Below are positions 39,293 through 60,170 of a stretch of DNA of 64,000 bases, piece after piece. Origin of the DNA: Candidatus Nomurabacteria bacterium (lineage in GTDB: Bacteria > Patescibacteriota > Minisyncoccia > Phycocordibacterales > SBAW01); assembly GCA_943348815.1 (NCBI GenBank), contig CALQYT010000006.1, positions 2,501-66,500 on the forward strand, written 5' to 3'. Each line of letters starts with the position of its first letter. Positions within the stretch are counted from its first letter, which is position 1. The notes below the pieces were generated by a model. The model had not been told where the DNA came from, made no database searches, and saw nothing but the letters and a program-made list of their open reading frames with translations. The translations under genes were made by a program, and so were the position numbers.

Positions 39293-39511
39293 CTAAAGAG
39301 TTCCTTGCTGGCCTTCGCTCTCCTCGATCAATCTCTGCTCTTTGAGGTATCGGGTTATCGCATACCACGCCGAGTTGATCACTGGGATCAACAACGCCCA
39401 GCGAGGGTCGTTTTGAACGTAAGCGATCAGAAGCGGCAGGATGGACGATACTGCAGAGTAAAAGAAAACAATTGCGAGGTGCTTAAGTGCTTCTTTTTGA
39501 GGTGTTGTCAT
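39293..39511 (-). CDS. Holin-like small membrane protein (2 TM)
   Basis: 72 aa, two hydrophobic helices, adjacent to the amidase. Confidence 0.4.
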   Translation of the reverse strand: MTTPQKEALKHLAIVFFYSAVSSILPLLIAYVQNDPRWALLIPVINSAWYAITRYLKEQRLIEESEGQQGTL

Positions 39512-39516
39512 AGTTA

Positions 39517-40092
39517 TTAGTTAATTATTTGTTTTATCATTGCCAATCCTTCCTCTACTTTCCTCACACCCTCCTCGACTGAAGGCTTTGGCGTTTCTGT
39601 TTGCTGGTTGGCTAGTGCCACCAGTTCGTCGAGGATTCTTTTATTGGTTGCCGGGCAGTTTGGTTTCTTTGAGAAGATCTCAAAGTGGCCAACGACATGA
39701 TCACGGTCAATCGGAATCTGCCATCGCTGACAAATCTCTCGGATCAAGGTTGCGCTGGATTGCTTCATTGCTTCAGTCCATCCCTCGTCTGGCTTACCCT
39801 CATGTTCAATACCGATCGTGTACAGGTTCGGGTTTACGTTCGGTCTTATAAGTTTCCAAACTGGGGCGTCCACTCGGCCAGCGTGCCAGGCGGCGTCATT
39901 CTCTTGAACGTATTGGTGGACTTCGCCACTTTTTCCGATCCCATAGTGTGCGCTGACTTGCGAAGTTGGGTTGGCAAACCACGAGTCAGTGCCCGGTAGT
40001 GTGCCATCCATGATGTGAATGACCACTGCTTCTGGCCGGTAACCTTTGCGTCCCACCCAGAAGTTGGATGATTTCTTTTGAATGATGTTCAT
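39517..40092 (-). CDS. N-acetylmuramoyl-L-alanine amidase (Amidase_2/PGRP endolysin)
   Basis: AHYGIGKSGEVHQYV..AWHAG..IGIEHEG..HVVGHFEI..CP, zinc-amidase motifs. Confidence 0.85.
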   Translation of the reverse strand: MNIIQKKSSNFWVGRKGYRPEAVVIHIMDGTLPGTDSWFANPTSQVSAHYGIGKSGEVHQYVQENDAAWHAGRVDAPVWKLIRPNVNPNLYTIGIEHEGKPDEGWTEAMKQSSATLIREICQRWQIPIDRDHVVGHFEIFSKKPNCPATNKRILDELVALANQQTETPKPSVEEGVRKVEEGLAMIKQIIN

Positions 40093-40095
40093 AGA

Positions 40096-40353
40096 TTATT
40101 TGTTAATGGTTAGTAGTAGGTTGATGATGGCTGTAATGAGCCCGCCGATTGATGCCGTAGCAATAATCCAAAAGAACCGCTTGAGCCAATCAACGTCAGT
40201 TCCGACTTTGGTCATGTCGGTCTGCAGATGTACAAGATGATTGTCTTTTATTTCGTTCACGGCTTTTTCAACCCGGTCGAGACGCTCATCTTGTAGTTGG
40301 TTTTGGTAGTCGGTTCTATCCATGTGATTATTTCGGCACGTAGGCTCTTTCAA
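40096..40353 (-). CDS. Small C-terminally membrane-anchored protein (holin/spanin-like)
   Basis: 85 aa. The probable start is MDRTDY at 40323. C-terminal TM. Confidence 0.35.
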   Translation of the reverse strand: MKEPTCRNNHMDRTDYQNQLQDERLDRVEKAVNEIKDNHLVHLQTDMTKVGTDVDWLKRFFWIIATASIGGLITAIINLLLTINK

Positions 40354-43144
40354 ATTTATTTATGAGGCCTCTAGCTTCCAATTCTTGCTCTAGGCGATTC
40401 TGGAGTTCTTGCTGTCGGTAGAACTTTTCTTTTTCGATGTCTACGTTTTTTGCTTTTGCGCCAATCAATCCATACAAGAACTTCACAGCTCCGGATGTAT
40501 TCTGATCGCTTAACTTCCCGGCAGTGTTGTAGAACCTGCCAAGAGCGGTGTTTAAGAAGTGAAGCTTATAAGCATTGCCTCGATAACTGACTGAACCGTC
40601 TTTGTTTTTGTGTTCGGTTACTTCCAGCCAGTCTCTTAATCCCGGCACTGAATTCACGAACGGAAAGACTCTATTGTTTGCTTCAATAGGTTCGCCGGTG
40701 AAAAGGTTTTGCCCGGTGCCGACTTCGATTGGATATTTCAGGAGCGGAGATAGTTCACCGACCATGCTCGCCACAGTCCGTTTCGCATCTCCTTTCCAAA
40801 TGCGATTAATGTCTTCGACGGGCAGTCCCAGTCCGTAGAGGTATTGAGAGAAACCGTTCTTTTCACCAAGTCGGACCGGCAGACCCTCTCGCATGTAGGG
40901 CGGTAAGGCGGCGAACTCTTCTTTGGCTTTCTGTTTGTTGTCGCCCTGCAGATTTTCCAGAAGTTTACCGATTGCTCCGTACTTGCCGGGCTGTTTGGCC
41001 ATCTGCTCAAGCTGAAGTGGAATGTTGCCTCGTGTCCATCGGTAGAATGGCAACAGTCGCTTCATTACGTTTTGTTCAAAGCCGGTTAGGGCTTCGGGCG
41101 CATAGTCGAAGTGGAATTGAAATACCTGTTTTGCGGCTTGTTCGGGTGCGTCGCCTTTGATAAGACGATCCACGAACAATGGCAAACGTAATCTGTTTTC
41201 GACCACCTCCATCGCTTTTTTGGGCGTATCCATGAGTTTGGACACAGGGCCCTTACCAATGTCTTTTTCGACCTCACGCATCACATCCAAATACCCAGGC
41301 TGTCCGACGACTCCCAGTTTGTTGGCCAATTCACGGATTTGGCCATATGAGTATTTGGTGCCAAGTTTAGTGGTGATCGTCCCCTCAAGACCCCGAGCGA
41401 TCTGATCGCCTTGCAAATATCGTGCAGGACTCTTTACTCCAGCGAGCCAGTTGTTGAACACGCCACCAATAGAGTTTCTGGTGTGGAATGACGGAAACCA
41501 TCCGGTTACCGATCCTTTCCAAAAACCAAGTGCTTTGTCATAGAGACTTAGGAACTTCCTAGTGGCCTCCTCGTTGGTCAGAGTTTTATAAGTGTCATCT
41601 ACATGCTTTGCGATCTGTTCAGGTAGTAACGTTCCTTTGAGTTGTGGTACTGAGCTTTCGATATACCGGATGCCATTTTCAAAGATGGGTCTGATCGTTT
41701 CTTTGGTCGTCATCTTTCCAGTGATCGGATTTTTAATTTCTTTGGTGATGACTTCCGCTTGTCTGCCGAATTGCTGACCGACGTTGGTCAAAAAGTCATA
41801 AGTATTTACGGCCTTGATGTGTTCGGCCTTACGGGCGGCAAACGCTTTGAAAGCGTCGGGTTCAAAGAGCTGTACACCGTATCTGCCTTGGAAGTATTTG
41901 TTGATCCCTTCGATGGTGCCGTCCAACTGTCTGGTCTTTGCAAATGGATTTTTAACACGAAGCGGTTTGTTTAGTTCGGCCGTTATGTTCATGCCGGTCT
42001 TATTCAGGAAGTCACGGCCCTCGGGTGTGAGATAGTGTCGAACATAATCTGGTAATTCCGTATCTAGGATTCCTTTCTCTTTTTCTATCGTGGCAAAGTT
42101 CGCATGCTGGCCTCGGATATTTTCCATGATCGTGTCGATCACGCTCTTTGGGGCTTCAGCAACCTGAGCGGCTTCTTTTGCCACTGGGCTTTCAAGCATT
42201 TTGCCAATCTCAAGTCCTGCGGTATTGCCCAGCTCTTTTTTGGCTGTCTTACCGAGTGCGGCCGCTTCCTCGACAGCTTTGCTTACTTCGGCTCGGGTGC
42301 CTTTGCTGAATGCAGTAAACTTGTCGAGATATTCTTGGCCTATACCACCGGGCATTTCTTTAATGGCCTTGAATGGCACAAATGCTTTACCGGCCAAGTC
42401 TTTTGCGCCTTGGTAGAGTTTGCCGACAACCGGTGTCTTTTCAACGATAGTATCTGCGGCTCTGAACGGAGCGGTCACTGCGGCTCGGGGCAATATCTGT
42501 TTGCCCATAAACTTGAGGCCGTCTTTAGCGAGAAACTTTTCGCCGCCTTCCTCAAGAACTTTTACGGCTACTGCTTTTCGTCCGGCTTCCTCACCGAGCT
42601 TCAAGATCGAGTCTTTAAGAAGGGTCGTACCGGCTTTGCTCAACGCCACCTCGCCAGCTTTGGTTGCCAATTTAGCTTCGGCCCCATAACCGAATGTTAT
42701 ATATGTAGTCGGATCAAGGAGCACGTCGGCAATAAAGCCACCGATAGGATTCTTAATGCCTAGAGCTTCGGACGGTAGTGTACGTTCTTTTATACCCCTC
42801 ATTATTCCTTTGCCACTGATAAGACCGCCGACTGCGTATGCTCCGGTGTTGAGTAAGTGGAGGAGTCGTTGCAGGACAGATTCTTTCGGCTGGGCGTTGG
42901 AAACATCCACACCTTGTTGAGCGGCGTAATCTTGAAGTCCAGCGACCGTTGTGACTTTCGGCTTGGCCGCAGGAGTGGAGGAATCGCTTGGCATCATCGT
43001 GTACTTGCCACTGGCATCCTTGCCGTACTTCATTCCCGATCCAGAGCTGGGTTCGGCAACCTTAATCGGCGCAACGGGTTTTATTGCCTGTACCGCATCG
43101 GTTCGTATGTACTTTCCAGTTGTAGGGTCTTTAACGTAGGCCAT
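40328..43144 (-). CDS. Large virion protein (938 aa), putative internal/ejection or tail-associated protein
   Basis: Start MAYVKDP 4 nt after the LysM-gene stop. Long Lys/Ala-rich alpha-helical protein. Confidence 0.55.
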   Translation of the reverse strand: MAYVKDPTTGKYIRTDAVQAIKPVAPIKVAEPSSGSGMKYGKDASGKYTMMPSDSSTPAAKPKVTTVAGLQDYAAQQGVDVSNAQPKESVLQRLLHLLNTGAYAVGGLISGKGIMRGIKERTLPSEALGIKNPIGGFIADVLLDPTTYITFGYGAEAKLATKAGEVALSKAGTTLLKDSILKLGEEAGRKAVAVKVLEEGGEKFLAKDGLKFMGKQILPRAAVTAPFRAADTIVEKTPVVGKLYQGAKDLAGKAFVPFKAIKEMPGGIGQEYLDKFTAFSKGTRAEVSKAVEEAAALGKTAKKELGNTAGLEIGKMLESPVAKEAAQVAEAPKSVIDTIMENIRGQHANFATIEKEKGILDTELPDYVRHYLTPEGRDFLNKTGMNITAELNKPLRVKNPFAKTRQLDGTIEGINKYFQGRYGVQLFEPDAFKAFAARKAEHIKAVNTYDFLTNVGQQFGRQAEVITKEIKNPITGKMTTKETIRPIFENGIRYIESSVPQLKGTLLPEQIAKHVDDTYKTLTNEEATRKFLSLYDKALGFWKGSVTGWFPSFHTRNSIGGVFNNWLAGVKSPARYLQGDQIARGLEGTITTKLGTKYSYGQIRELANKLGVVGQPGYLDVMREVEKDIGKGPVSKLMDTPKKAMEVVENRLRLPLFVDRLIKGDAPEQAAKQVFQFHFDYAPEALTGFEQNVMKRLLPFYRWTRGNIPLQLEQMAKQPGKYGAIGKLLENLQGDNKQKAKEEFAALPPYMREGLPVRLGEKNGFSQYLYGLGLPVEDINRIWKGDAKRTVASMVGELSPLLKYPIEVGTGQNLFTGEPIEANNRVFPFVNSVPGLRDWLEVTEHKNKDGSVSYRGNAYKLHFLNTALGRFYNTAGKLSDQNTSGAVKFLYGLIGAKAKNVDIEKEKFYRQQELQNRLEQELEARGLINKFERAYVPK

Positions 43145-43148
43145 ATTT

Positions 43149-44468: not shown

Positions 44469-44472
44469 AGGT

Positions 44473-44667
44473 TTAAGTCAGGGTTACGTATCTCCAGTTG
44501 CCGTTGAAAAAGATATAAAACCGTCTCACGCCTCCACTGTCATAGAGGGCAAAACTTATCGGTGTCCTCGGTGTATCAGTCGGCGCGACGTCGAGAATGG
44601 GGATGTCACGAAGGAGCCTTAGGATCGACCCCAAATTCGGATCATTGATGTTTTTATCTTCGTTCAT
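44473..44667 (-). CDS. Hypothetical small phage protein
   Basis: 64-aa ORF. Confidence 0.3.
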   Translation of the reverse strand: MNEDKNINDPNLGSILRLLRDIPILDVAPTDTPRTPISFALYDSGGVRRFYIFFNGNWRYVTLT

Positions 44668-44672
44668 GGTGA

Positions 44673-44963
44673 TTATGGTAGGTTTTTAAACTCGTCCAAG
44701 ACCTCATTAATCTGGTCGAGTTGCGTTTTGAATTTGGCCATAGTGACCTCGATGTCCTCTTTTTCTTTTTGCAATGCAGGAATGTTGATCACTGTTACGT
44801 CTGGGCGTGAATCAATTTTTTTCACGTTATCGTCATCTATTTTCTCCAACGTGAACTTTTTCTTTATTTCCGTTGGAGGTGGCGTTACCACCGGCTCTGG
44901 TTTGGGTTCGACTGGGGCCGGAGTCGCATCTGCTGTATTTGGTGTTGTTGTTTCGTCGGGCAT
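44673..44963 (-). CDS. Hypothetical phage protein (Pro/Thr-rich N-terminus)
   Basis: 96-aa ORF. Confidence 0.4.
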   Translation of the reverse strand: MPDETTTPNTADATPAPVEPKPEPVVTPPPTEIKKKFTLEKIDDDNVKKIDSRPDVTVINIPALQKEKEDIEVTMAKFKTQLDQINEVLDEFKNLP

Positions 44964-44970
44964 ATATTTT

Positions 44971-46716
44971 TTATTTAATTATTCGATCAGGGATGTATAC
45001 GGTTGAGATATCGGAAATTCCCATATCCCACTCGCCAATAAATCCCGATGGTGACCAGACCTCAATTTTTAACTGAATCTTTTTCGACCTCGCATTGAAC
45101 CGGAGCAGTTTGTTAACTGCCGCCGGATAATCACTCCCCTTGAGAGTGGCGATCTTTTTAAATGAGGAGAGCAAAATGTAGGAGTTGCTGTCGTAGCTCT
45201 CGCCGTTGTAGAGCGTTTCGTCCACATAGATTCTCTTGAGCGTAGTGTCGATCGATGCGACATGTCTTATTTGCCCCGCACCGCCACCGGAGAGCACTGT
45301 TATTTCATCGCCGACTTCGTAGTAAGGCGGCGAACCCGGCAGAAATGAGAGATCAAAATAAGTGCTCGAACCTCCTAGGGCGTACTGAGTATATTTTTGA
45401 TATTGCTCGGTGGTGTTGTACTTGATCACTATTCTTGCAAAGCTTGTGTTCACTAGTGGTTTCCAAAAGTTAAGGATCACTTGCTTAAATCGTTTACGCA
45501 GATACGGTTCATCATCGAGAAGTGGCGTTACGAGAATTGCTCCCCAGTTGTACGGCCGCGCAGTGCCTTGATCCATCGAAGCGTCGATGACATACGCTCC
45601 GGAGCCGCCGCCTTTGTACCAAGCGGCTCGGAAAATATTGCCACCAGTATCGACAAGAATGCTTCCAACACTGATCACGCCAAAGCCACTTATGTTCGTA
45701 GTAGCGTTGTTCGACATCGTGTGTTTGAAATACAAAGCCCTTGTTACTGGGTTGAAGACCCAAATGCCACCGGGCAGGAATCGTTTGGACATGTCGTATC
45801 CGCTCGCACCTTTTCCGATCAGAATTAATCCTTGGAAAACTTTGACTGCGTCCGGATTGATGTTTATAAGGCTGGCGTAGTTAGCATCAAGCTGAATGTC
45901 CGGGAATCGTGCGAGCTTTATAAGTCCAACGCCGTTGAATGCATTGATCCAGCCATCACCAGTTATCACGTAGAGCGTGTTCTTATCGACTACACCGGCT
46001 AGAGCTCGGACTTGTGGTAGTTGGATTACTCGGTTGTAGGTTTGTGAGTAACCGTCCCAGAAAAAGAGGGCTGATCCGAAGGCGTTATGGTGAGCACAAA
46101 TGACGAGATAGTCGGTAAGCGGTTGAAGCCACTTGATCTTGTATCCGAGTGGCAGGGTGATACGAGTTGAATTCCACGTTCCAGCTCCTTGATCCCATAC
46201 GGCCAAGTATCTTTGGTTTCCGAAGCAGACGAATTTTAGAAACTTATTTATCGGACACAATTCGGCATTGTTCGATACAGCAAAACTCTGCCATGAGTCA
46301 TTCCATGTCGCGGCATTGGCATCGTATCTACCGGCGTATCCGTTTGAGGCGAAGTATAAATATCCTTTCTCGACGTAATTATCGATTTGGCTGTCACCGA
46401 ACAGTCCTAAACCTCCCCAAGCGTTCACGTTGTCATGAACTTCCGTCCAGCTCGGGTAGTTGTAGCGGAATATCTTGCCGTCGAGCATGTTGTTGACGTA
46501 GTTTGTGTTGTCAAAAATTGTGCCCCAGTACACATCAGCCAGCGTGGGAACTGATGCGCTGTCGGCTTCCTTGATCATCTTTGATGCCACTCGCAGGTAT
46601 GGTGGTGATGCTTCAAAGTCCAGTCCTTGTGACCACCAGAACATGCCTTCGGCATTGAGATTACCCAGTCCGAGGTGAAAGCGTGATATTTTCCAAATTT
46701 TCTTTGCGAGTGACAT
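44971..46716 (-). CDS. Putative tail/receptor-binding protein (propeller-like, W/Y/G-rich)
   Basis: 581 aa with recurring aromatic-Gly blades (GGLGLFGDS.., GYLYFASNGYAGRY.., GGIWVFNP..). Confidence 0.5.
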   Translation of the reverse strand: MSLAKKIWKISRFHLGLGNLNAEGMFWWSQGLDFEASPPYLRVASKMIKEADSASVPTLADVYWGTIFDNTNYVNNMLDGKIFRYNYPSWTEVHDNVNAWGGLGLFGDSQIDNYVEKGYLYFASNGYAGRYDANAATWNDSWQSFAVSNNAELCPINKFLKFVCFGNQRYLAVWDQGAGTWNSTRITLPLGYKIKWLQPLTDYLVICAHHNAFGSALFFWDGYSQTYNRVIQLPQVRALAGVVDKNTLYVITGDGWINAFNGVGLIKLARFPDIQLDANYASLININPDAVKVFQGLILIGKGASGYDMSKRFLPGGIWVFNPVTRALYFKHTMSNNATTNISGFGVISVGSILVDTGGNIFRAAWYKGGGSGAYVIDASMDQGTARPYNWGAILVTPLLDDEPYLRKRFKQVILNFWKPLVNTSFARIVIKYNTTEQYQKYTQYALGGSSTYFDLSFLPGSPPYYEVGDEITVLSGGGAGQIRHVASIDTTLKRIYVDETLYNGESYDSNSYILLSSFKKIATLKGSDYPAAVNKLLRFNARSKKIQLKIEVWSPSGFIGEWDMGISDISTVYIPDRIIK

Positions 46717-46723
46717 GGTGGTT

Positions 46724-47356
46724 TTATACGAGACTGCTTCTTGGTATCTCGGCTTGATCAGAAGCCGCGGCCATTCGAGCGATCTCTTGGTCTCGCCATT
46801 TGCCGATCATGATTTTCTCAAAGTTATTTTCTGCTTGGCGTTCAAGCTCGGTGTCGCCTTGCTGGTTGTAGTACATTTTTTTGCCCCATTCGACGTAGGC
46901 TTGGTGGTAGAGCTTTTCTACTTCCGGCTCGTCATTGTCGGAGGCAAAGTCGTCTGAGATCCGCACAAACACCAAATTCATGCTGTCGCCGTCTTTGGTC
47001 GGTATTGCTATCGGGTAAAACGAACCGCCGAGCAGGTAGACTGCGTGGTTGGTGTAGTCGCTTCGTTTTCGGAAGTCGACCAGCTTATAGGGTTGAGTGT
47101 CAGTGCCGACTCTTAATTCCATGAACGCTCGAAAGTTTTCGGGGACCGGGTATCTTGTCTGATTAGCAACAGTCGTGTACGGCTGTTCGGTCTTGAGATA
47201 GTCCCAGTAATCGAATGATTGGTTTTGATCGTTTGCTGGTCGCCAACCCTGAACCTTTTCATCGGCTTTCTGCACCCACGTGTTGAGCAGTGTGTCATCA
47301 ACAGTCTGGTCGTCGACTTCGTTCTTGATTGCTTTTTTAATGTCGCCTCTGGTCAT
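46724..47356 (-). CDS. Hypothetical phage structural protein
   Basis: 210-aa ORF. Confidence 0.45.
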   Translation of the reverse strand: MTRGDIKKAIKNEVDDQTVDDTLLNTWVQKADEKVQGWRPANDQNQSFDYWDYLKTEQPYTTVANQTRYPVPENFRAFMELRVGTDTQPYKLVDFRKRSDYTNHAVYLLGGSFYPIAIPTKDGDSMNLVFVRISDDFASDNDEPEVEKLYHQAYVEWGKKMYYNQQGDTELERQAENNFEKIMIGKWRDQEIARMAAASDQAEIPRSSLV

Positions 47357-53067: not shown

Positions 53068-53124
53068 AGGTTGTGGTTGTTACAGACCGGCAACCGCTCA
53101 CGAAGACCTCAAATCTTATAAGGG

Positions 53125-53979
53125 TTACCGGACTTTATTTGGGTTGATACTTGATCCCACAAGGTCATCAAAGGGACTGCCTTGTGGTGTGTTGCCTTTG
53201 GTAGCTGGTGAGCCACCTCCGACACCGGATGCGTTTTCTCGCTCGAGATTCTTAACCTCCTCTTTCTTGAGAGCTTCATCGGCCGCTTTCTTTGCTTGCG
53301 AATCCTTTGTGACGGAGTCGTAAGCCAGTTGAAGTGTCCGGGCATTGAACGGAAGCTTTTCTTTTTCGATGATGTCGAGCACTTGGTGACCCAGCTCGGG
53401 TTCTTTGAAGTCCTCGTGTTCACCGATCCATTTGTCGATCTCGGCTTTCGTCTTTGCTTTGGTTTCTCGCTCCTCAAGTTTTTTGTCGAGGATGGCTTCG
53501 ATATCGGGCTCGTCCTTTGCTGGCTCTGCATCGCTGGCTTTCATAGCTTCGGCGAGTGCCGCTTTCAGCTGTTCGGCCAGTTGCGGTTGCTTGACCAATG
53601 CCTTGTCGAGTATTGAGAGAAACTGGTCGTTTTTCTCGCTTGTGGCTTTGAGCTCATTAAGTTCTTTGCCTTGCTCGATGATCTTGGTCTGGGCTTCGTC
53701 ATAAGAGCGCTTGGCATCCTCTTCGCTCTTGAACTTGCCCCAGAAGGACTTATCGCCTTCGGGTTGTTTACCCTCGGGACTTTGGCTCTTATCGTTTGGC
53801 TTTACGCCAGATTGATCCTCGGGTTTAGCCGGGGCGTCTGGTTTCTTGTCAGGTTGGTCTCCGCTCGGAGTGCCCGACGGAACGGAATTGACCGGTTGTT
53901 CCTTACCGACCGCATCGTCAAAAGACGGAGTCTCTGGCTTTGCGTTCGGATCGGCGCCGGAATTGTTTTTGTTGTCCAT
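53125..53979 (-). CDS. Putative scaffolding protein
   Basis: Acidic, Lys/Glu-rich coiled-coil. Positioned between portal and capsid. Confidence 0.55.
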   Translation of the reverse strand: MDNKNNSGADPNAKPETPSFDDAVGKEQPVNSVPSGTPSGDQPDKKPDAPAKPEDQSGVKPNDKSQSPEGKQPEGDKSFWGKFKSEEDAKRSYDEAQTKIIEQGKELNELKATSEKNDQFLSILDKALVKQPQLAEQLKAALAEAMKASDAEPAKDEPDIEAILDKKLEERETKAKTKAEIDKWIGEHEDFKEPELGHQVLDIIEKEKLPFNARTLQLAYDSVTKDSQAKKAADEALKKEEVKNLERENASGVGGGSPATKGNTPQGSPFDDLVGSSINPNKVR

Positions 53980-54179: not shown

Positions 54180-54419
54180 TTATGTTGGTGCTTTCATATG
54201 TTCATCGTGAATGGTTTTAATCCGAAGCAGGATTACTCCCAAGCCCTCGGCTCGACCTTGATAAAATCGCATCTCATCTGCAGTGAGTCCTTTATTGAGT
54301 ATCCATGTCTTGGTGACTTCAAGTTCATTGGCAATAAGTTCGGAGAGTGCATTAAAATACTTGGTCTCATAGAGATTGCTTATTGTTTCCTCGATATCTT
54401 TGTGTAGTGTGTCGTTCAT
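54180..54419 (-). CDS. Hypothetical small phage protein
   Basis: 79-aa ORF between portal and scaffold. Confidence 0.35.
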   Translation of the reverse strand: MNDTLHKDIEETISNLYETKYFNALSELIANELEVTKTWILNKGLTADEMRFYQGRAEGLGVILLRIKTIHDEHMKAPT

Positions 54420-54423
54420 AGGT

Positions 54424-56331
54424 TTATTGCTTCATGGCATTGCCAAACATCGCACCCATTTCGTTACCCGGCAGTGGTTCTTTGGCTGGCATTGCTCCGG
54501 CCATTGGGTCTATGGCAGGTGCATCACCGGGTGCTACGTCGGTCATACCGGGGCCCGGTGGTGTTACGTCGGCAGGATTCGGTACTACCGGTGCAGGTTT
54601 GTTTTCGGCAATGTAGTTGGTCGGCTCCCAGCCATAGTCCTCAAAGAGCTTCATCAAAATTTTGAATTTCTTTATTGAGTACACCGTTCCTGTTTCCGGA
54701 TCAGTTAATTCGTTCACGTCTTTGATCAGTCCCCAGAGTTCCAAGTCCTTTGATTTGCGAAGTTCAGTGGAAGTGGCAAGGCTTGCTGTGGATTCAAGGG
54801 ACATCTCGTAGTCATAGTCAAAGAGTCCTTCGATGTTCTCGGTAGCATCGTTTATAAGTCCGTGACGCATCAGAATTGCGACGGCCTTGTCTGGCATCAC
54901 ACCTTTGGTCGTCCAAAATTGCTTCATCATACAAATCCAGTGTTCAAAGTGCATCACGTAGGAGTTACGAAGCATGATTAGGAACAGCTTCACTCCCTCG
55001 AGCGTTGCTTCTCGCATGAATGAGGCAACAGTCGCTGTTTGTTTCTGGTCTACACCGGCAGTGGTGGTGTATTCGTCTATACCGACTGCGATTCTCATGG
55101 CTTCCTTGATGTGATCGGGTTCTACGAACGCCGAGGAGTTCACGTCTCCAAATTTCAACTCACGCACGGAGTTCGGATCATTCGTCCATAGGATTCCCAG
55201 TGGTCTTACGGTAATGGTTGACTGCTTATATCCGGGGAGAGCCACTGGTGCCGCGGCGATCATGCTGTGTATTTTCATGGTCACGGCATCTACTCGCTGG
55301 TTGGTTACCGAGTTCAGAAGTTCTTGCAGATGGTCTACAAGTTTCGGTATGCCGAGCCAGTAGAACGAGAATGGTCGGGGGAAGAAGCCTGTTCGGGAGA
55401 AGGGTTTTGTTTGGTGATCGTAGGGATTGTCGTTGTCTTTGATCTCGATTGGCGTTCCTTCCATCGGCAGGAACACGCAGAAGTGGTCATCAGTCCATCG
55501 CTCTACGACCTCAAAGAGTTTATCGCTTGAGACTGGCAATTGGACCGGGTTGTTTGGGTTGCCTTGGATTGGAGTTGACGCCTTGGTTGTCTCTCGGATG
55601 CTCTTACGCACTTGGATCAAGACTTCTTTTCGCACGTAGGCATAGTCGGTAATATCGCCACCGGATTTTATAACCTCGCCGTCTTTGTCCACAAACTGAT
55701 TCCATGTGTTGGTTGGTACGTCGGAGTATTGGGTTTTCATTTCATCCAACGTCAGTACGTATCGGTGAAATACCGGGAACGGATCGGCTATCTTTTTCAT
55801 CCTCGGGTGTGGGTAGAAGTTATAAATATCTACCGGATCAAAGTCTGGTCGGAAGGTTATTCTCTCGGTAGCCGTCTTGAAGATCAGTTTCTTTATCTTA
55901 TCGATCATGCCGATTTCTTTCTGTCTCTTTTTCTTGGTCTCTTTCTTGAGGAAGTCTTTGCCAATGGTCGTTCCGCAAATGAACACCTGCAGGAAGTAGT
56001 CGATCAGGTCATCGCTCATGCCAATCTCCCAGAGCCACAGGATCAGGTCTTTGACGGCTTCGCTGTTCTTACCCTCGAGCTTGAAGTCAGGTGTAATGCC
56101 GACGGTCTTTTGTAAAAAGGTTTTGATGTATGCGAAAACTTGGGGAATGAAAACATTGGATTGCCACACTTCGCCGTCAGTGGTCTGCTCCAGCTCTACG
56201 GCACGATCACCGTTCCAAGACGAGAACAGCTTATAGCCCCGATCAAATTCGGGTTTGTAGTAGTACATGAAGTTCTTTTTTGCTTCATCGTACTCGGTAT
56301 TATATTTTTGCAGTTCTTTGGTAGTGGCCAT
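54424..56331 (-). CDS. Portal (head-tail connector) protein
   Basis: 635 aa, immediately downstream of TerL. C-terminal Pro/Gly/Ala/Met-rich tail. Confidence 0.6.
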   Translation of the reverse strand: MATTKELQKYNTEYDEAKKNFMYYYKPEFDRGYKLFSSWNGDRAVELEQTTDGEVWQSNVFIPQVFAYIKTFLQKTVGITPDFKLEGKNSEAVKDLILWLWEIGMSDDLIDYFLQVFICGTTIGKDFLKKETKKKRQKEIGMIDKIKKLIFKTATERITFRPDFDPVDIYNFYPHPRMKKIADPFPVFHRYVLTLDEMKTQYSDVPTNTWNQFVDKDGEVIKSGGDITDYAYVRKEVLIQVRKSIRETTKASTPIQGNPNNPVQLPVSSDKLFEVVERWTDDHFCVFLPMEGTPIEIKDNDNPYDHQTKPFSRTGFFPRPFSFYWLGIPKLVDHLQELLNSVTNQRVDAVTMKIHSMIAAAPVALPGYKQSTITVRPLGILWTNDPNSVRELKFGDVNSSAFVEPDHIKEAMRIAVGIDEYTTTAGVDQKQTATVASFMREATLEGVKLFLIMLRNSYVMHFEHWICMMKQFWTTKGVMPDKAVAILMRHGLINDATENIEGLFDYDYEMSLESTASLATSTELRKSKDLELWGLIKDVNELTDPETGTVYSIKKFKILMKLFEDYGWEPTNYIAENKPAPVVPNPADVTPPGPGMTDVAPGDAPAIDPMAGAMPAKEPLPGNEMGAMFGNAMKQ

Positions 56332-56332
56332 A

Positions 56333-57982
56333 TTAGTAAAGTTTCATTGATCGACCTTTGGTCGCTTTCGGCATTGCGCTTGGCAGTTCCTTGAGTCCTT
56401 GCCATGCGAGCATTGCCGAAATAAGGCAGTCATCTTTTTGTCCTGTTTCCGCTCCCATTCCATGCCGGTTGCTTTCATTGGTGTGTACGAAGGTCATCAT
56501 CTGGCTTACGGTCGTTGGGCTTGATAATCCGATTTCCTCATCACGCAGTCCGGCAATAAAGTCGTCTACCATGAGGGGCTTGGTGGTCTGGGTGGTTTTC
56601 CATCCCAGTTCTTTTCTCTTGGTGTTGGTGACCTTGTCGAATATGGTTCTTTGATAGAGATTGCCGTACTCGGCTTTGAGAGCGTTTATTACCGCCAGTC
56701 CGTGATTGTTTATTTCGATGACAGCCAGTGCTTCGTTGAAGAGTTGGGCAGTCTGTTTGATTTTCTTGGCAAACAGGTCTGGTTGTATCTGTCCCACGTA
56801 ACTTCCGACTTCACGTCCGGTCATCTTGTCGATTACCGTGATCGCCGAGTCATCTTGTCCGATTCCTTCGCTTGGGTCTGCTCCCAAGCTGTAGAAGTGT
56901 CTCGGATTCGGTTCCTCGTAAATCATGATGTCATCCAGCTTTCGTATCGGGGCCCGGGTGAATTTGCTCTGGGCTTCCACATACTGTTTTGGAATGACTG
57001 CTTTACTTGATGCCACGAACGCTTCCTCGATGGTTGCCGGGTATTCTTGCTTGAACTTATCGACTTCGCCGCCACACTTGTTTTGAATTGCCCAGCGTCG
57101 CCAGTTCAGTTGTTCTAGGGTCAGCTTTGTTTTCGTCTTGAGACCCCTTTCGTATTCGTCCAGTGTTTCGGAAAACTTTATCTTTTCTTGGTCACTGGTG
57201 AATTCGAGACTGTATTCAGGCATCAGATGCCATGGCAGGAAGATGAGTTCAAACTCGCTCTTTCCGGCCAGTGCGTCTTGCACGGCTCGGTAGAAGTATT
57301 CACCATCACCTCCGAAGCCATTGGCGGTGGATTCCAGAAACACGGCAGTATTGGGCAGGTTCGGAATTGCTTGCAATGCCGATAGCATCAGGTCTTTAGC
57401 GTTTTTCCAGAACGCTACCTCGGAGCCGTGGAAGTTGTGGAGGGTTAAACCTCTACCCACTTTCACTTTGTCGGCAGTGGCAATGACCATTCGTGATCGG
57501 AGTCCCGGGTCTGCAGTCCTTGTCTTTTCCTCGGGATTCTCGAACACCATCTGCTTCTTGTTGTCGTACCGGCGCATTGGCTTCGCCCATGTGGGAAGCA
57601 TGTCGTAGAACAGCTTACTCATGGCAAAGATTGCGTCTGTTGATTCTGGTTCGTGGGCAACGATAAGCGAGTTGGTGTTCTCAAATCGTGCAGTCCTCTC
57701 GAAGATTAGGGCTTCGCACAGTGTTGAGACTCCTTCTTGTCTGGCCTTGAGGATAATCATTCGTATTGGCTTACCCAGTGCTCGTAGTTTCTTGATCCGG
57801 TTGTAGATCAGGGATTGAGCGGTATTCAGGTGTAAAAGAACGGTTTGCTGATTCTTGGTTTTTATTGATAAACACCTCTCGATGAATTCTTGCGGTTCAG
57901 CGTCGCAAATCCTCATCACCTCCACGAGGTCGTTAACCATCTGGAGGGGGTTTCTCTCTTGCTTTTCGGAGGATTTGTTCAT
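56333..57982 (-). CDS. Terminase large subunit
   Basis: ATPase Walker A-like (ILKARQEGVSTL), Walker B/coupling (MVIATADKV) and a C-terminal nuclease region. 549 aa. Confidence 0.85.
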   Translation of the reverse strand: MNKSSEKQERNPLQMVNDLVEVMRICDAEPQEFIERCLSIKTKNQQTVLLHLNTAQSLIYNRIKKLRALGKPIRMIILKARQEGVSTLCEALIFERTARFENTNSLIVAHEPESTDAIFAMSKLFYDMLPTWAKPMRRYDNKKQMVFENPEEKTRTADPGLRSRMVIATADKVKVGRGLTLHNFHGSEVAFWKNAKDLMLSALQAIPNLPNTAVFLESTANGFGGDGEYFYRAVQDALAGKSEFELIFLPWHLMPEYSLEFTSDQEKIKFSETLDEYERGLKTKTKLTLEQLNWRRWAIQNKCGGEVDKFKQEYPATIEEAFVASSKAVIPKQYVEAQSKFTRAPIRKLDDIMIYEEPNPRHFYSLGADPSEGIGQDDSAITVIDKMTGREVGSYVGQIQPDLFAKKIKQTAQLFNEALAVIEINNHGLAVINALKAEYGNLYQRTIFDKVTNTKRKELGWKTTQTTKPLMVDDFIAGLRDEEIGLSSPTTVSQMMTFVHTNESNRHGMGAETGQKDDCLISAMLAWQGLKELPSAMPKATKGRSMKLY

Positions 57983-58358
57983 AGCTTAGGTCTGTTCCAA
58001 ATAATCCCCGATGTTCGACCGTTTCTTTCGGGCTTCCGAGTTCTCGGTCGAGGACTTCTTTGGCGGCGCGAAATTTAACATTGTCATCGGAGCTACCCAT
58101 TAAGGCGATCATCATGCTCGCCGCAACGGCAAGGTTCTTTCGGAGTATCTCTTGGGCATCTGCTTTCTTAATCTCATTCTGTTCGTCACGGTATTTGTCG
58201 TATTCCTCTTTGAGCAGTCCACCGAACATGAACCACTTCCGCACGGTCGAGAGGGGTGTCTTGAGTTTTTTGGCAATGACGATATACGACTCACCGGCGT
58301 ATTTGAGGTGAACCGCTTCTTGGTACTTTTCGTTTTGTATGTCGACATTTTTGGCCAT
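57933..58358 (-). CDS. Putative terminase small subunit (HTH)
   Basis: 141 aa. N-terminal HTH-like (YIVIAKKLKTPLSTVRKW). Overlaps the TerL start. Confidence 0.45.
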   Translation of the reverse strand: MAKNVDIQNEKYQEAVHLKYAGESYIVIAKKLKTPLSTVRKWFMFGGLLKEEYDKYRDEQNEIKKADAQEILRKNLAVAASMMIALMGSSDDNVKFRAAKEVLDRELGSPKETVEHRGLFGTDLSYEQILRKAREKPPPDG

Positions 58359-58359
58359 T

Positions 58360-59220
58360 TTAGTTCTGTTTAGTTCCGTTTAATTCCGCAATGCGGTCTG
58401 AACAGATGATTTCCAGTGCCTTGCTCTCGCTCACACTCTGGGCTTTGGCGACCTCTGCCAATGCCTCATCGATGACGGTTTTCTGTGGATTGGTCACGTT
58501 GAAACTGATAAGGGCGATGGTCTCTCGGTGGGCATTGATGTCTTTGCTTATCTTGCCGACCTTTACGCCTTTGGTCTTTGCAAATGCGGTAACTGCTTTT
58601 ATAAATTCATCGGCGGCTTCTTTCGGGTCTTTGTCGACGATAAAATTCAAGGCGACAAAGTTCTCACGCTCGGCTTTCTTAAGCTCGATCATTTTCTTTT
58701 CTATTTCGTCCTTCACGAGGTCGAGTGCGTCTTTAACATTCACGTCCTCCTCGCCGAGGTTGCTTGCGATCTCTTTTATCGAGTATCCGTTTTGTGTCAG
58801 CTCGTAGGCGAGCTTGCCGAGTTTGAGTTGCTGGTTGGACCCGTGAATGTTGTCGGTTAATCCGTAGAGCTTGGCTTCGTCCTCGCTTTTGAATTCGTGG
58901 ACATTTGCTTCGATCTCGGCATTGCCGAGCTCCCCGAGCACTTTCCATGTGTGGTAACCACCAACGATCACATAGCCGTCTTTGACTTTCATGTTCGGCC
59001 AAACGCCGACTTGGATCGGTTTGGTCTGTCCGTATCGGGTCAGGGCTTTTTTGAGCGACGAAAATTGTCGGGCGTTCATCTCGTTGGGATTCCAAGAGTT
59101 CGGAACGCACTCTTTAATTTTCACCGTCTTGATTTGTGTTTTTGTTTTGGTCATACGGTTACGATCATGTACTCGATGTTGTTGCTCTGGTTGCGACCAC
59201 CCGCGTTTGATACCGACCAC
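58360..59220 (-). CDS. ParB-like nuclease domain protein
   Basis: ParB N-terminal domain pattern (IQVGVWPN...VIVGGYHTWKVLGELG). Confidence 0.65.
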   Translation of the reverse strand: MVGIKRGWSQPEQQHRVHDRNRMTKTKTQIKTVKIKECVPNSWNPNEMNARQFSSLKKALTRYGQTKPIQVGVWPNMKVKDGYVIVGGYHTWKVLGELGNAEIEANVHEFKSEDEAKLYGLTDNIHGSNQQLKLGKLAYELTQNGYSIKEIASNLGEEDVNVKDALDLVKDEIEKKMIELKKAERENFVALNFIVDKDPKEAADEFIKAVTAFAKTKGVKVGKISKDINAHRETIALISFNVTNPQKTVIDEALAEVAKAQSVSESKALEIICSDRIAELNGTKQN

Positions 59221-60170
59221 TTGTGATCAAGCATCTGCACTTCGGCTTTGCGATACTTTTGCACCATCGCCAATAACTTTTCTGGCTTCACGCCGACGTC
59301 CTCTTTATTTTGGCCAAGCGAGATGATCCATTGGGGAATATGCTTTGCGGCTTCAAACATTCTTTCCAGAAAATCGTCAGCGTCTTTGTTTGAAAATCCG
59401 CTCGGTTTGTTATCCAGCTTTTTACCCACGAGCAGGTTATCTAAAATCCCATACTCAACCTCGTAGGCAGAAGAGCCAGGATAAGGAGGATCAAAATAAA
59501 TAACATCACCCTGAACAGTCTTGAGGAAATCAAACACGTCTTTTTGGTGTATTTCATTGTCTTGGTGGTTGTCGAAAATTCCATGATTAACTTCGTCTTT
59601 TAATTTTTCCAAAGTGAGCATGGGATTCTGGATCATCCGTAGGTTTTTCGGGGCATGTGACTTGGATCGCAGTGGCCACTCCCATTTGCGAGCTTCCAAG
59701 TCCAGTGTGTCCCGGGTGTGCGTAAACTTTCCGAATTGTCGGCACGACAGTATGAATTTGATGATAAGGTGCATGAGCAAATATCGTTTGGTTTCGTTTT
59801 CCACCTGTCTGGCGGCCACCACAGCATTGTCTAAAAAGTCTGCTATCTTGCTGGTGAAAACTTTCGGGCAGTAATTCTTTTTTATAAATCCATCGTGTTT
59901 AGTTTCGACGAACAACCTTGCCAAGTCCTCGCTCTCTAACTTCACAGAATTGTTGGCGATAATTGCTTTGCCAATAATCAGGGACCGGAATGCGATGTCA
60001 TTTGAAATAACTTTGTATCCTTTTGCCTTGGCGTAGAGACTCACTGATCCGCCACCAAGAAAAGCATCGATAAAAACTCCTTCTGTTTTCTTGATCGGCT
60101 TAAAAATATATTTGACCAGCTTTCGCTTGCCGCCGAAATAACTTGGTAATGATTGGAATTTGGAAAACAT
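59151..60170 (-). CDS. DNA N6-adenine methyltransferase (Dam/D12 class)
   Basis: Motif I FGGKRKL..FLGGGSV and motif IV DPPY. Confidence 0.85.
   Translation of the reverse strand: MFSKFQSLPSYFGGKRKLVKYIFKPIKKTEGVFIDAFLGGGSVSLYAKAKGYKVISNDIAFRSLIIGKAIIANNSVKLESEDLARLFVETKHDGFIKKNYCPKVFTSKIADFLDNAVVAARQVENETKRYLLMHLIIKFILSCRQFGKFTHTRDTLDLEARKWEWPLRSKSHAPKNLRMIQNPMLTLEKLKDEVNHGIFDNHQDNEIHQKDVFDFLKTVQGDVIYFDPPYPGSSAYEVEYGILDNLLVGKKLDNKPSGFSNKDADDFLERMFEAAKHIPQWIISLGQNKEDVGVKPEKLLAMVQKYRKAEVQMLDHKWSVSNAGGRNQSNNIEYMIVTV

Follow-up and report, generated by a model that had tools for sequence, protein, structure and literature searches.

A 64,000-nucleotide stretch of DNA (the window) carries a long run of phage late genes on its minus strand, and the question it raises is whether these belong to a prophage, how far that prophage extends, and whether it could still move. 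The host is a Paceibacteria-like CPR bacterium, as had been supposed: its GatA shares 75-76% identity with proteins of Kaiserbacteria and Adlerbacteria. The part of the window from 39121 to 63880 (24.8 kb) is a real and well preserved prophage, whose gene content, boundaries, family membership and purifying selection are demonstrated here. We consider it, with a probability of about 0.68, to be an integrated Caudoviricetes phage, temperate and probably short-tailed, of a family circulating among CPR (Patescibacteria), in a copy that lacks its own lysogeny module. The window copy is probably stranded: the genes for integrase, repressor and replication initiator, all present in a complete relative, are missing from it.

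Gene content

The prophage block has a G+C of 0.46-0.51, against 0.52-0.55 in the host part, and consists of two divergent arms (Table 1). The long minus-strand arm runs in the order Dam, ParB-like, TerS, TerL, portal, scaffold, SU10-type capsid, spike, fibres, adaptor, virion proteins and lysis cassette, and the open reading frames and their translations bear out, gene for gene and to the same positions, the minus-strand list of the preliminary description. The short plus-strand arm holds a SoFic-like Fic protein, RadC and one exchangeable gene predicted to act in anti-phage defence; the region between the arms has no credible ORF. The family matches of the prophage genes are far above chance level. 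Searches of Pfam and PHROG families found no integrase, repressor or replication family inside 39121-63880, in agreement with the integrase and replication genes having been reported as missing.

Table 1 Features of the prophage and its junctions (window positions)
Feature	Position	Strand	Evidence or remark
pepA, second, diverged pep copy	38284-38421	+	tblastn against pepB, E 4e-14
SET-domain gene between the two pep copies	38399-39022	-	PF00856, E 5e-13
pepB, pep block	39121-39270	+	Conserved 50-codon start-less frame, convergent with last lysis gene
Holin-like membrane protein, 72 aa	39293-39511	-	Hydrophobic segment, residues ~12-33
Endolysin, N-acetylmuramoyl-L-alanine amidase (Amidase_2)	39517-40092	-	PF01510, E 7e-29
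Holin-like membrane protein, 75 aa	40096-40323	-	Hydrophobic segment, residues ~50-74
938-aa protein, candidate internal virion/ejection protein	40328-43144	-	Position
LysM-domain protein, 439 aa	43149-44468	-	PF01476, E 1.5e-12
64-aa protein, small, conserved	44473-44667	-	Syntenic among relatives
96-aa protein, small, conserved	44673-44963	-	Syntenic among relatives
581-aa protein, candidate nozzle/tail hub	44971-46716	-	Directly downstream of adaptor gene
SU10-type head-to-tail adaptor (SU10_adaptor)	46724-47356	-	PF24175, E 1e-14
BppU_N-domain protein, baseplate or fibre anchor	47362-47676	-	PF10651, E 8e-11
Repetitive fibre-like protein, 447 aa	47673-49016	-	14-residue period
Beta-helix tailspike	49023-50564	-	NosD/Beta_helix, E 5e-14
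259-aa structural-region protein, conserved	50579-51358	-	phrog_13135
124-aa structural-region protein, conserved	51371-51745	-	PHROG matches to its C-terminal region
Major capsid protein (MCP), SU10_MCP family	51844-53067	-	PF17236, E 3e-39
Scaffold-like 284-aa protein	53125-53979	-	SU10-like location between portal and capsid genes
79-aa protein	54180-54419	-	Between portal and capsid genes
Portal	54424-56331	-	Weak: SU10_portal PF23899, E 9e-6; phrog_1216, E 3e-5; adjoins TerL
TerL, terminase large subunit	56333-57982	-	phrog_2, E 3e-20
TerS-like, terminase small subunit	57933-58358	-	phrog_2538, E 2e-5
ParB-like protein (ParB_N)	58360-59154	-	Pfam E 1e-5; PHROG ParB families down to 6e-16
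D12 Dam methyltransferase	59151-60170	-	PF02086, E 2e-21
Divergent intergenic region, late arm/Fic arm	60171-60581	.	18-nt palindrome 60322-60373 (inverted repeat I23)
Fic-domain protein, C-terminal winged helix, part of phage	60582-61646	+	PF02661, E 2e-16
RadC-like JAB-domain protein, part of phage	61667-62170	+	PF04002
ABC/OLD-type ATPase, last phage gene, variable defence-cargo slot	62174-63880	+	AAA_15, E 8e-14
Right prophage/host junction	63881-64000	+	21-nt spacer, then small host membrane-protein gene from 63902

Among the packaging and head genes, TerL is 27-32% identical to annotated terminases across 88-95% of its length (tblastn). The capsid protein assigned earlier is confirmed by its match to SU10_MCP; the portal assigned earlier is matched weakly, its 24.8 bits to SU10_portal being below the Pfam cut-off of 30. 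Neither the scaffold-like protein nor the 79-aa protein has a family match in Pfam or PHROGs.

The tailspike N-terminus matches PHROG tail-fibre families, and the protein is variable among relatives (54-95% identity). The fibre-like protein has a residue identity of 0.40 at a lag of 14, against a background of 0.08, with repeat copies spaced by multiples of 42 nt, and its identity among relatives is just 50-91%. For the 581-aa protein, no match was found in Pfam, PHROG or PDB, comparison with SU10_017 by hhalign was negative, and the AlphaFold model is unusable (pLDDT 30.6). The 64-aa and 96-aa proteins have no family match in Pfam or PHROG. The LysM protein may be a cell-wall-binding virion protein. 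The 938-aa protein, which has no Pfam, PHROG or PDB match, is called at the same size in public assemblies and has a dN/dS of 0.06-0.16; its position suggests an internal virion or ejection protein. In the lysis cassette, a strongly hydrophobic stretch of 19 residues occurs once in each of the two small proteins flanking the amidase, as holins would be expected to show. The 75-aa protein is called at that length in public assemblies, and the 72-aa protein is 72-89% identical among relatives.

The left end

The left end had been placed at about 39.29 kb, which is where the last gene stops; the conserved element in fact reaches 170 nt further left, to 39121. This extension is the pep block, which was detected in 61 related loci and in every one of them comes after the final lysis gene. 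In 47 of 47 copies only this frame is open, and in 18 of them any in-frame start codon is absent. Variability at third codon positions is about double that at first and second positions, and dN/dS is 0.29. Because pep is constant after the lysis cassette, while the sequence beyond it differs by locus and is host-like (pilins, PilM, LigA, LexA, NUDIX), the left boundary is placed at pep. Judged from the alignment, the 5' edge of pepB, with CTGGCGG at 39118-39125, is the left prophage/host junction, of attL type: when attR (L141), attP-like (L048) and attL (L033 and the window) sequences are aligned, homology switches exactly at CTGGCGG.

In six loci (L032, L046, L048, L073, L099 and L105) a serine-recombinase frame abuts pep. 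It is in frame with pep in two of these (L048 and L073), where pep may be translated as the integrase tail; in the other four it ends 6-8 codons inside the block in another frame, and a role of pep as integrase tail is therefore not general. Among 5.8 billion sequences, no protein longer than 82 aa ends in pep.

It is worth adding that the second copy, pepA, matches a profile of the 47 pep copies with E 4e-26 and probably marks where an older, related element ended. The two-copy arrangement recurs in one relative (L110), which keeps the flanks and has a HIT-like gene in the position of the SET-domain gene. The last ~31 codons of the SET-domain gene (38417-38509) are a Fic-like fragment (E 9e-8).

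The right end

On the right, the preliminary description took the Fic/OLD block for bounding non-phage DNA. This is rejected: the block is the phage's own divergently transcribed arm, up to 63880. In relatives, Fic and RadC stand beside Dam with identities of 82-90%. The Fic protein next to Dam is 86-92% identical in relatives, and its nearly full-length match to the PADLOC SoFic model (E 1.9e-42) makes it a homologue of the SoFic defence protein. RadC adjoins the phage in 10 of 13 genome loci and is 76-86% identical there. The cargo ATPase has partial PADLOC matches to AriA (6e-17), PtuA and Old (1.5e-9), and relatives have a Ppl-like ATPase, restriction-modification genes or AbiE in the same slot.

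The right boundary is placed after the cargo ATPase because identity falls to host level there. When L124 is compared with L135, identity is 81-97% for the phage genes and 92% for the cargo ATPase, as against 33% for the next gene and 65% for DsbA, and the window has the same pattern; between hosts in general, right-flank genes are 33-71% identical and phage genes 80-97%. The prophage junctions, left and right, are identical in every assembly of the source samples. It had been suggested that the element was either a remnant or continued into an early region beyond the window. The former is nearer the truth: host genes begin at 63902, and identical contigs running 3.6 kb further show the small membrane-protein gene and then a DsbA cluster (extension contigs L001 and L002). 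No serine-recombinase remnant was found at the right end of the window.

A complete relative and its lysogeny module

The lysogeny module and the junction anatomy are demonstrated in relatives. The complete relative is one 55.9-kb IMG/VR contig, of which L033, L008 and L141 are parts, with a phage of ~38 kb; this contig is the single case in which both ends of one relative are observed. Beyond the cargo it has a PD-(D/E)XK nuclease, a PF00589 integrase, HTH_36, XRE+S24 and then a Resolvase+Recombinase+Zn_ribbon protein, whose frame overlaps tRNA-Ser(CGA) in antisense. The same order, from cargo to HTH_36 to XRE, is found in L143-145. The module could be a separate small integrative element in tandem; window positions 1-7.2 kb are such a small element, with serine recombinase, HTH_36 and XRE, located at tRNA-Gln.

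The continued plus-strand arm of this relative thus codes for an initiator-like HTH_36 protein, a repressor of CI type (XRE + S24) and a tyrosine recombinase, and ends in the large serine integrase; the phage attachment site is at the 3' end of the integrase gene. We propose that, when the genome is circular, this gene abuts pep beside the lysis genes, and in some lineages reads in frame into it. Integration into the 3' end of a tRNA gene would then separate the two, the integrase closing one end of the prophage and pep the opposite end. The pep-side junction is kept in the window copy, but initiator, repressor, integrase and the second junction are missing, and this copy would therefore be unable to excise or integrate by its own means.

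Distribution and selection

Twenty loci were found among species-representative genomes, 19 of them with an MCP 80-97% identical and with conserved gene order; for the MCP in 19 genome loci, 88-97% identity is also recorded. A related amidase is encoded by 120 metagenome stretches, and the 90%-identity cluster of the MCP has 296 members. For all core genes dN/dS is 0.03-0.18, and together with a conservation far above that of the host flanks, this leads to the conclusion that the family is an active, horizontally spreading phage lineage. Core-gene dS is 0.2 to 2.5, and its variation between genes is the mosaic pattern of an active phage population. Decayed remnants of the family also exist. 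The block is thus conserved, but as a mobile phage and not as the non-phage island that had been considered.

Alternative explanations

The prophage might be complete, with its lysogeny and replication module further right and the DsbA/copper cluster inserted as an island. The source contig does end ~3.6 kb past the window, the cluster has a G+C of 0.41-0.48, below the host mean, and in relatives it runs into copper-resistance genes, which are often mobile. However, the divergence of the cluster is at host level and not at phage level, its six genes include none with a phage-family match (DsbA alone has a Pfam family), and in the complete relative the module comes directly after the cargo, all of which makes this improbable. 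A different account starts from the integrase-less right junction (cargo gene, ~20 nt, same host gene), which recurs in three divergent hosts. Three independent deletions are an unparsimonious explanation, and this counts against our preferred reading. The window copy could instead belong to an integrase-less but mobile sublineage that keeps half an attachment site and is moved in trans by the serine integrase of a co-resident element or a co-infecting complete relative, with insertion favoured immediately upstream of the gene for the small membrane protein. Flanks of 33-71% identity around phage genes of 80-97% at this shared junction, the presence of small serine recombinase/HTH_36/XRE elements in the same genome (as at window 1-7.2 kb) and the strong purifying selection on core genes would all fit. 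Against it, the right junction has no attR-like sequence, CTGGCGG core or recombinase-arm homology; the resident recombinase, located at tRNA-Gln, shares just 22% identity with the L141 integrase, whose type is the one found against a near-identical pep in L048; and no circular junction is present in the assemblies. We regard this account as rather unlikely.

The intact structural genes, under purifying selection and without integrase, repressor or replication genes, and the chromosomal junction conserved in three hosts might also be expected of a domesticated particle system retained by the host, such as a gene-transfer agent or tailocin. This can be given very little credence, since the block is far more conserved than the host flanks and has many different pep-side contexts, its receptor-binding proteins are hypervariable (50-95% identity), a lysis cassette is present, as are Dam, terminase and exchangeable defence cargo, and its relatives include both copies with integrases and repressor and decayed remnants. 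A last doubt concerns the virion, which the preliminary description held to be probably short-tailed. A short tail is indeed probable, given the missing tail-family matches, the adaptor family and the podovirus relatives. Tube and tape-measure functions might still be hidden among the 938-aa, 581-aa and 439-aa proteins, which are without structural assignment. There is a small chance of this, set against the SU10-type adaptor and capsid protein, an order from TerL through portal, small protein and scaffold to capsid as in the podovirus SU10, and several nearest deposited capsid proteins that come from podoviruses (119X, PaMx41 and EBPR podovirus 3); no tail tube, sheath or tape-measure family was matched in Pfam or PHROGs, nor any chaperone or distal-tail family.

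Comparison with known systems

The view that CPR prophages are scarcely described is out of date: as given in a 2025 survey, 1,162 Patescibacteriota phages are recorded, 64% of them called temperate (PMC12911398), and prophages are reported in Paceibacteria, Absconditabacteria, Gracilibacteria and Saccharibacteria (PMC12455944, PMC13059738). These are likewise temperate tailed phages integrated in CPR genomes, some with DNA methylases (PMC12455944, PMC12911398, PMC13059738). The three reports are at catalogue level and, going by their descriptions, do not describe this family, its junction anatomy or integrase-less copies. Because temperate CPR phages are now widely reported, the novelty is modest, and the window copy is a fairly ordinary prophage of a family widespread in ultra-small CPR bacteria.

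Large serine integrases are used by temperate phages of the phiC31, Bxb1 and TP901-1/A118 type (PMC11530663). Relatives of the window copy likewise encode Resolvase + Recombinase + Zn_ribbon integrases beside the attachment site at the genome end, but here the site overlaps the integrase frame, integration is directed to a tRNA gene at its 3' end, where 7 bp (CTGGCGG) are shared, and the window copy is without any integrase. An attP inside a reading frame, with integration at a tRNA gene swapping the C-terminal end of the protein, resembles the integration-dependent immunity of cluster G/N/P mycobacteriophages such as BPs and Brujita, as outlined in PMC9262239 (citing Broussard 2013). There, by the same outline, it is the repressor gene that is split and a tyrosine integrase that acts, whereas here it is the serine integrase gene itself that is split; the in-frame arrangement is found in just two of six junctions, and any functional consequence is putative.

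Escherichia phage vB_EcoP_SU10 (Kuravirus) resembles the window copy in its structural module. The window capsid and adaptor belong to Pfam families built on SU10 (PF17236 and PF24175), the portal matches the SU10 family weakly, and TerL, portal, a ~79-aa protein, scaffold and capsid follow in the same order, with fibre, tail and large virion-protein genes coming after in both. In SU10 the lysis genes stand in the middle of the module, in the window at its end. SU10 is lytic, has a genome of 77 kb and encodes its own DNA polymerase, whereas the window element measures 25 kb (~38 kb in complete form) and has temperate relatives. Window and SU10 proteins lack BLAST-level similarity. Membership of Kuravirus is rejected.

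P2/P4-like prophages have defence hotspots, which include the old gene of P2. The present family has an unrelated phage backbone and host phylum, but it too has a fixed slot near one end, filled by varied genes of predicted anti-phage function (AriA/OLD-like ATPase, Ppl, restriction-modification, AbiE), with the SoFic-like gene alongside.

Gene content and morphology of the prophage

All of the minus-strand reading frames that the preliminary description had placed in a podovirus-like late module were recovered at the same coordinates in the ORF list and its translations, and gene families were assigned using Pfam and PHROGs. The block has a G+C content of 0.46-0.51, against 0.52-0.55 in the adjoining host DNA. 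Its products include a Dam methyltransferase of the D12 type (E 2e-21), a ParB_N protein and TerS, a small HTH protein assigned through a PHROG of small terminases. TerL has no Pfam match; it was recognised by phrog_2 (E 3e-20) and, across 88-95% of its length, is 27-32% identical to genes annotated as TerL. The portal candidate has the size and position of a portal, with a weak match to PF23899 (SU10_portal; 24.8 bits, under the cut-off of 30) and one to phrog_1216 (E 3e-5). The HK97-fold major capsid protein matches SU10_MCP (PF17236, E 3e-39; 135.7 bits, the cut-off being 24.1) and is 25-31% identical to annotated capsid proteins by tblastn. A β-helix spike, a BppU_N protein, a LysM protein and an Amidase_2 endolysin (E 7e-29) are also present, the two small proteins beside the amidase having one strongly hydrophobic segment each. 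The 447-aa fibre-like protein has no Pfam or PHROG match. It shows a clear period of 14 residues, with about 23-28 copies of a unit of rough consensus TYxLDIRNLATKxx; Tandem Repeats Finder detects no array in its gene because the copies are too diverged at the DNA level, and the gene is among the most variable between relatives.

Neither Pfam nor PHROGs matched a tail tube, sheath or tape-measure gene in any ORF of 39293-60170, the same outcome as in the preliminary description; this is negative evidence only. A short-tailed virion would have an adaptor, with a nozzle or hub, directly on the portal, and an adaptor of the SU10 type is present (PF24175, E 1e-14). Sequence searches of the PDB gave no match for the portal, adaptor, 581-aa or 938-aa proteins. 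Comparison of the 581-aa nozzle candidate with SU10_017 by hhalign gave a probability of 0.2, and BLASTP of the adaptor against SU10_016 an E value of 0.47, the choice of these two SU10 proteins as nozzle and adaptor being guesses that may be wrong. A single-sequence AlphaFold model of the 581-aa protein was unusable (pLDDT 30.6).

Capsid identity does not exceed 31% even with the nearest deposited phages (Roseobacter CRP-810, Microcystis Mel-JY34, Pseudomonas 119X/PaMx41 and EBPR podovirus 3), among which there are several podoviruses. Podovirus SU10 has the same order of TerL, portal, small protein, scaffold and capsid protein, and in both genomes the fibre, tail and large virion-protein genes come after the capsid, but the lysis genes are mid-module in SU10 and last in the window. 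Membership of the Kuravirus/SU10-like phages, taken as a lytic genome of about 77 kb that encodes a DNA polymerase, together with proteins of close similarity, was rejected: SU10 is not in the best 15 of 25 capsid tblastn matches, all at 31% identity or less, the prophage has no polymerase, and its relatives are temperate.

Genes for CTP synthase, LigA and GatA, a type IV pilus cluster and five tRNAs lie in the window outside the prophage. GatA shares 75-76% identity with proteins named Candidatus Kaiserbacteria and Adlerbacteria, and about 70% with those of Paceibacterota; on these identities the host is assigned to the CPR bacteria, in the Parcubacteria/Paceibacteria group.

Coordinates of features in the window and in related loci (L-numbers)
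Sequence	Position	Feature	Remarks
Window	1-7200	Separate small integrative element	Also in L139
Window	13-951	N-terminal part of 548-aa large serine recombinase	Small element
Window	2979-3123 and 3439-3583	Perfect 145-nt inverted repeat, 315-nt spacer	Small element; candidate invertible segment
Window	3610-3822	XRE HTH protein	Small element
Window	6695-6732 and 7047-7084	38-nt direct repeat, 95% identical	Around 73-aa ORF
Window	38284-38421	pepA, second diverged copy of pep	
Window	38284-39120	Stretch from pepA to pepB, with SET ORF fused in frame to Fic fragment	
Window	39118-39125	attL-type edge	
Window	39121-39270	pepB	
Window	39121-63880	Prophage	
Window	47673-49016	447-aa fibre-like protein	
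Window	60322-60373	Near-perfect 18-nt palindrome, 16-nt spacer	Between divergent Dam and Fic; candidate operator or origin
Window	62174-63880	Cargo ATPase	
Window	63881-63901	21-nt spacer	
Window	63902 (start)	x141, small host membrane-protein gene	
L099	2695-3678	Rolling-circle replication initiator	REP_ORF2-G2P, E 5e-15; adjoins serine recombinase abutting pep
L110	1179-1937	Corresponding stretch, with HIT-like gene replacing SET	Flanks conserved: 95 nt beside pepB, Fic-like fragment beside pepA
L129	8676-11597	Decayed family remnant	
L137	1-10501	Conjugative type IV secretion element	On 928-kb contig
L143	4351-7276	Fic-RadC arm adjoining diversity-generating retroelement	On another backbone
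L144	1044-3969	Fic-RadC arm adjoining diversity-generating retroelement	On another backbone

Distribution and conservation of the family

The window holds a clean and well-bounded example of a CPR phage family that is widespread, its near-identical capsid genes numbering in the hundreds in public data. A search of species-representative genomes with the capsid protein gave 20 loci, 19 of them at 80-97% identity and mostly on long CPR contigs; the capsid cluster at 90% identity has 296 members, and a search with the amidase gave 120 metagenome stretches. In the loci fetched with the capsid, order is kept gene for gene from Dam to the 938-aa gene, where these loci end, and those fetched with the amidase have the same order and continue through the lysis cassette. 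Capsid, portal and terminase are 80-97% identical among relatives, and the spike, fibre and 581-aa protein fall to 50-57% in some; high variability is the usual pattern for receptor-binding parts. Every core gene has a dN/dS of 0.03-0.18 against four relatives, and synonymous divergence ranges from 0.2 to 2.5 among the genes of one pair, which implies recombinational mosaicism. The core genes are functional and belong to an active phage population; they are not decaying relics.

CPR bacteria form a large share of bacterial diversity, but the genome organisation of their viruses is understood in only a few cases. The preliminary description regarded such prophages as scarcely described. This no longer holds: PMC12911398, PMC12455944 and PMC13059738 report temperate phages and prophages of Patescibacteria in number, and a CPR prophage as such is no longer remarkable. 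The relatives show where the lysogeny genes are, that tRNA 3' ends are targeted with a serine integrase, and that a SoFic-like gene accompanies a swappable defence slot. This is of use for the choice of integrases as CPR genetic tools and for the annotation of CPR genomes, since such blocks sometimes end up in bins named Gammaproteobacteria or Kiritimatiellae. Several phage-bearing contigs, up to 1.3 Mb long (L012, L014, L017, L022, L024-L026, L029), appear in public records as Gammaproteobacteria, Methyloversatilis or Kiritimatiellae and are likely mislabelled or mis-binned. It is worth adding that L129-L134 hold a remnant without late genes, in which AbiEi-AbiEii-RadC and a Dam cut to 255 aa (93% identical) lie between FeoB/YibE_F and Wzy/ribosomal-protein genes.

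The Fic arm and the right-hand boundary

Where loci extend far enough, most have homologues of Fic and RadC next to Dam, at 82-90% identity, and the two genes belong to the phage; the preliminary description had the module run into a Fic/OLD block instead of early genes. The Fic protein is a near full-length match to SoFic (PADLOC E 1.9e-42, profile positions 46-350 of 361), which makes it a putative defence protein homologous to SoFic. The ATPase part of the 'OLD' assignment stands, since the cargo gene matches AAA_15 (E 8e-14). Its PADLOC matches to AriA (6e-17), PtuA and Old are only partial, the one to Old covers residues 302-364 (E 1.5e-9) and scores below AriA, and no Toprim match was obtained, OLD consisting of an N-terminal ABC ATPase and a C-terminal Toprim nuclease. 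In L124-L126, L135 and L141 the gene after RadC is a PHP+SMC ATPase matching Ppl; elsewhere this slot holds DNA methylases and restriction enzymes, AbiEi/AbiEii, or HsdR.

L124 and L135 have 81-97% identity in their phage genes and 92% in the Ppl-like ATPase, against 33% in the next gene and 65% in DsbA. Similarly, the window and L124 share 80-92% identity in the phage genes (TerS 60%), against 46% in x141, 34% in DsbA and 40-71% in other genes of the right flank. This break in identity places the right boundary of the prophage at the spacer before x141, inside the window. An early region had been suggested to lie beyond the window, but contigs identical to it reach 3.6 kb further right (the source contig is 70.2 kb) and show only a DsbA/membrane-protein cluster.

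Two observations concern homologues of this arm. The retroelement in L143 and L144 comprises bAvd, a reverse transcriptase and a 290-aa candidate target gene, and the element in L137, with Replic_Relax, TrbC, PrgI and TraC/TraG, includes a RadC homologue (73% identical).

The pep block at the left edge

About 25-45 nt past the last lysis gene, on the opposite strand, there is a conserved block of 141-153 nt, here called pep, which occupies this place in 61/61 related loci where it was detected. Of its reading frames, one alone is open in all 47 copies, 18 of which have no in-frame ATG, GTG or TTG. Third codon positions are about twice as variable as the others, and the pairwise dN/dS is 0.29. 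The substitutions follow a codon-like pattern, which points to a coding sequence, and no Rfam family matched; an identity as structured RNA was rejected. The database homologues (46/46) are orphans of 31-82 aa. Conservation begins abruptly at GGCGGTG(G/A)CGAT, and hairpins (MFE at or below -12 kcal/mol) upstream of this edge are only modestly enriched (36% against 17%, p = 0.012). Beyond pep the content varies by locus, and a Pfam census of 150 ORFs gave host functions (pilins, PilM, LigA, LexA, NUDIX and VKOR); host genes common to loci are only 27-58% identical there (LigA 42-58%).

Other origins for pep were considered. It is not a replacement 3' end of a host gene, as no host reading frame enters it and the upstream sequences are unrelated. 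Nor is it related to the C-terminal end of x141, the membrane protein of the right junction, for which a profile search gave no match and the alignment shows a different conserved tail. A lysogeny module was considered on the left of pep in L033, where an S24 protein, CBASS and a recombinase lie; it was rejected, the census suggesting host DNA or another island on that side.

In the window pepA and pepB are separated by a SET-domain gene that ends in a Fic-like fragment of 31 codons, and the double-pep region looks like the stub of an earlier related element.

Attachment sites and lysogeny genes in relatives

No integrase, repressor or replication family was matched in the prophage with Pfam or PHROGs, which bears out the earlier remark that integrase and replication genes are missing. 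Specifically, Pfam gave no Resolvase or Phage_integrase match, and tblastn with six related serine recombinases matched the window only at 7-996, outside the prophage. No repressor or replication-initiator gene was detected in the prophage; one relative has XRE+S24 and HTH_36. The spacer at the right holds no core or repeat matching the left edge, there is no attR and no tRNA at this second end, and direct or inverted repeats joining both ends were not found beyond chance.

The relative in question is a 55.9-kb IMG/VR contig, of which L033, L008 and L141 are three pieces. Its plus-strand arm carries, in order, Fic, RadC, two methylases, 396-aa and 337-aa genes, a Ppl-like ATPase, a PD-(D/E)XK nuclease, a 174-aa protein and a PF00589 tyrosine recombinase. 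Next, on the other strand, are an HTH_36 protein and a 131-aa protein, then an XRE+S24 CI-like repressor, and last a large serine recombinase of 538 aa, with a reading frame that runs antisense over tRNA-Ser(CGA). On another backbone, L143-L145 have the same order of Fic, RadC, restriction cargo, HTH_36 and XRE. Integrases with Resolvase, Recombinase and zinc-ribbon domains lie by the attachment site, with tRNA overlap, in L032, L033 and L141, these being relatives and not the window copy. A recombinase with 75% identity to the L141 enzyme is represented in L048 by its C-terminal 154 residues, which run in frame straight into pep, and in L073 the recombinase is also in frame with pep; in L032, L046, L099 and L105 the serine-recombinase frame stops 6-8 codons inside the pep block. 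The replication module of L099 differs from the HTH_36 type.

When L141 (integrase/tRNA), L048 (integrase/pep), L033 (host/pep) and both window edges are aligned, homology switches at a common CTGGCGG, a pattern that would be expected for attR, attP and attL. Window pepB differs from the L048 block at 1 base in 60, a near-identity which suggests that the ancestor of the window copy probably used an L141-type integrase.

Proposed integration scheme, a possible role for pep, and alternative explanations

On the reading preferred here, the complete phage is about 38 kb, with its attachment site at the 3' end of the integrase gene, and integration at a tRNA 3' end places pep and the integrase at opposite ends of the prophage. 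The window copy has the pep-side junction only, without the HTH_36, CI-like and integrase genes, attR and tRNA. We conclude that it is a prophage without a lysogeny and replication module of its own, and it is therefore probably immobile; assemblies from the source samples contain integrated junctions only. Three hosts whose flanks are divergent have the same junction without an integrase, in which the cargo gene is followed by about 20 nt and x141. Independent deletions are unlikely; an integrase-less lineage mobilised in trans, or a second route of integration, may account for it. The lysogeny module of the complete relative could also be a separate small element in tandem, and the left end of the window is such an element, with a serine recombinase ending in tRNA-Gln, HTH_36, SpoVG-like and XRE genes. 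A gene-transfer agent or domesticated particle predicts vertical inheritance and host-like divergence, against which the phage genes are 80-97% identical and the flanking host genes 33-71% (LigA 42-58%).

Only two features could lead to something new, namely the start-less conserved frame at the prophage edge and the integrase-less junction that recurs. Tentatively, and with a probability of only about one in four, pep may be an exchangeable C-terminal tail of the family's serine integrase, with the attachment site inside the gene and integrase-less copies borrowing integrases in trans. The integrase of the circular phage would then be long and end in pep, and that of the prophage would end in sequence antisense to the tRNA; tail exchange could provide a built-in switch of directionality or stability. 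Integrase-less copies such as that in the window would persist, or even move, by borrowed integrases, and this could be why three divergent CPR hosts have an identical junction. However, translation of pep as the integrase tail fits only two of the six junctions. Integration-dependent immunity in mycobacteriophages is a precedent for an attachment site within a reading frame; there, according to PMC9262239, it is the repressor gene that is split and the integrase is a tyrosine enzyme. The present feature is possibly new as a variant, at which the window only hints.

The small element at the left end of the window

The serine recombinase at the left end of the window was considered as the prophage integrase displaced by inversion. 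This was rejected, as the gene ends in an antisense tRNA-Gln followed by the host genes HicB and a TypA-like GTPase, has no pep-like sequence, and belongs to the separate small element. The overlapped tRNA-Gln(CTG) lies about 0.6 kb left of the window, and the element also carries HTH_36, a SpoVG-like protein and DUF5677. Near its right edge, the 38-nt direct repeat may mark an attachment site or the end of the element.
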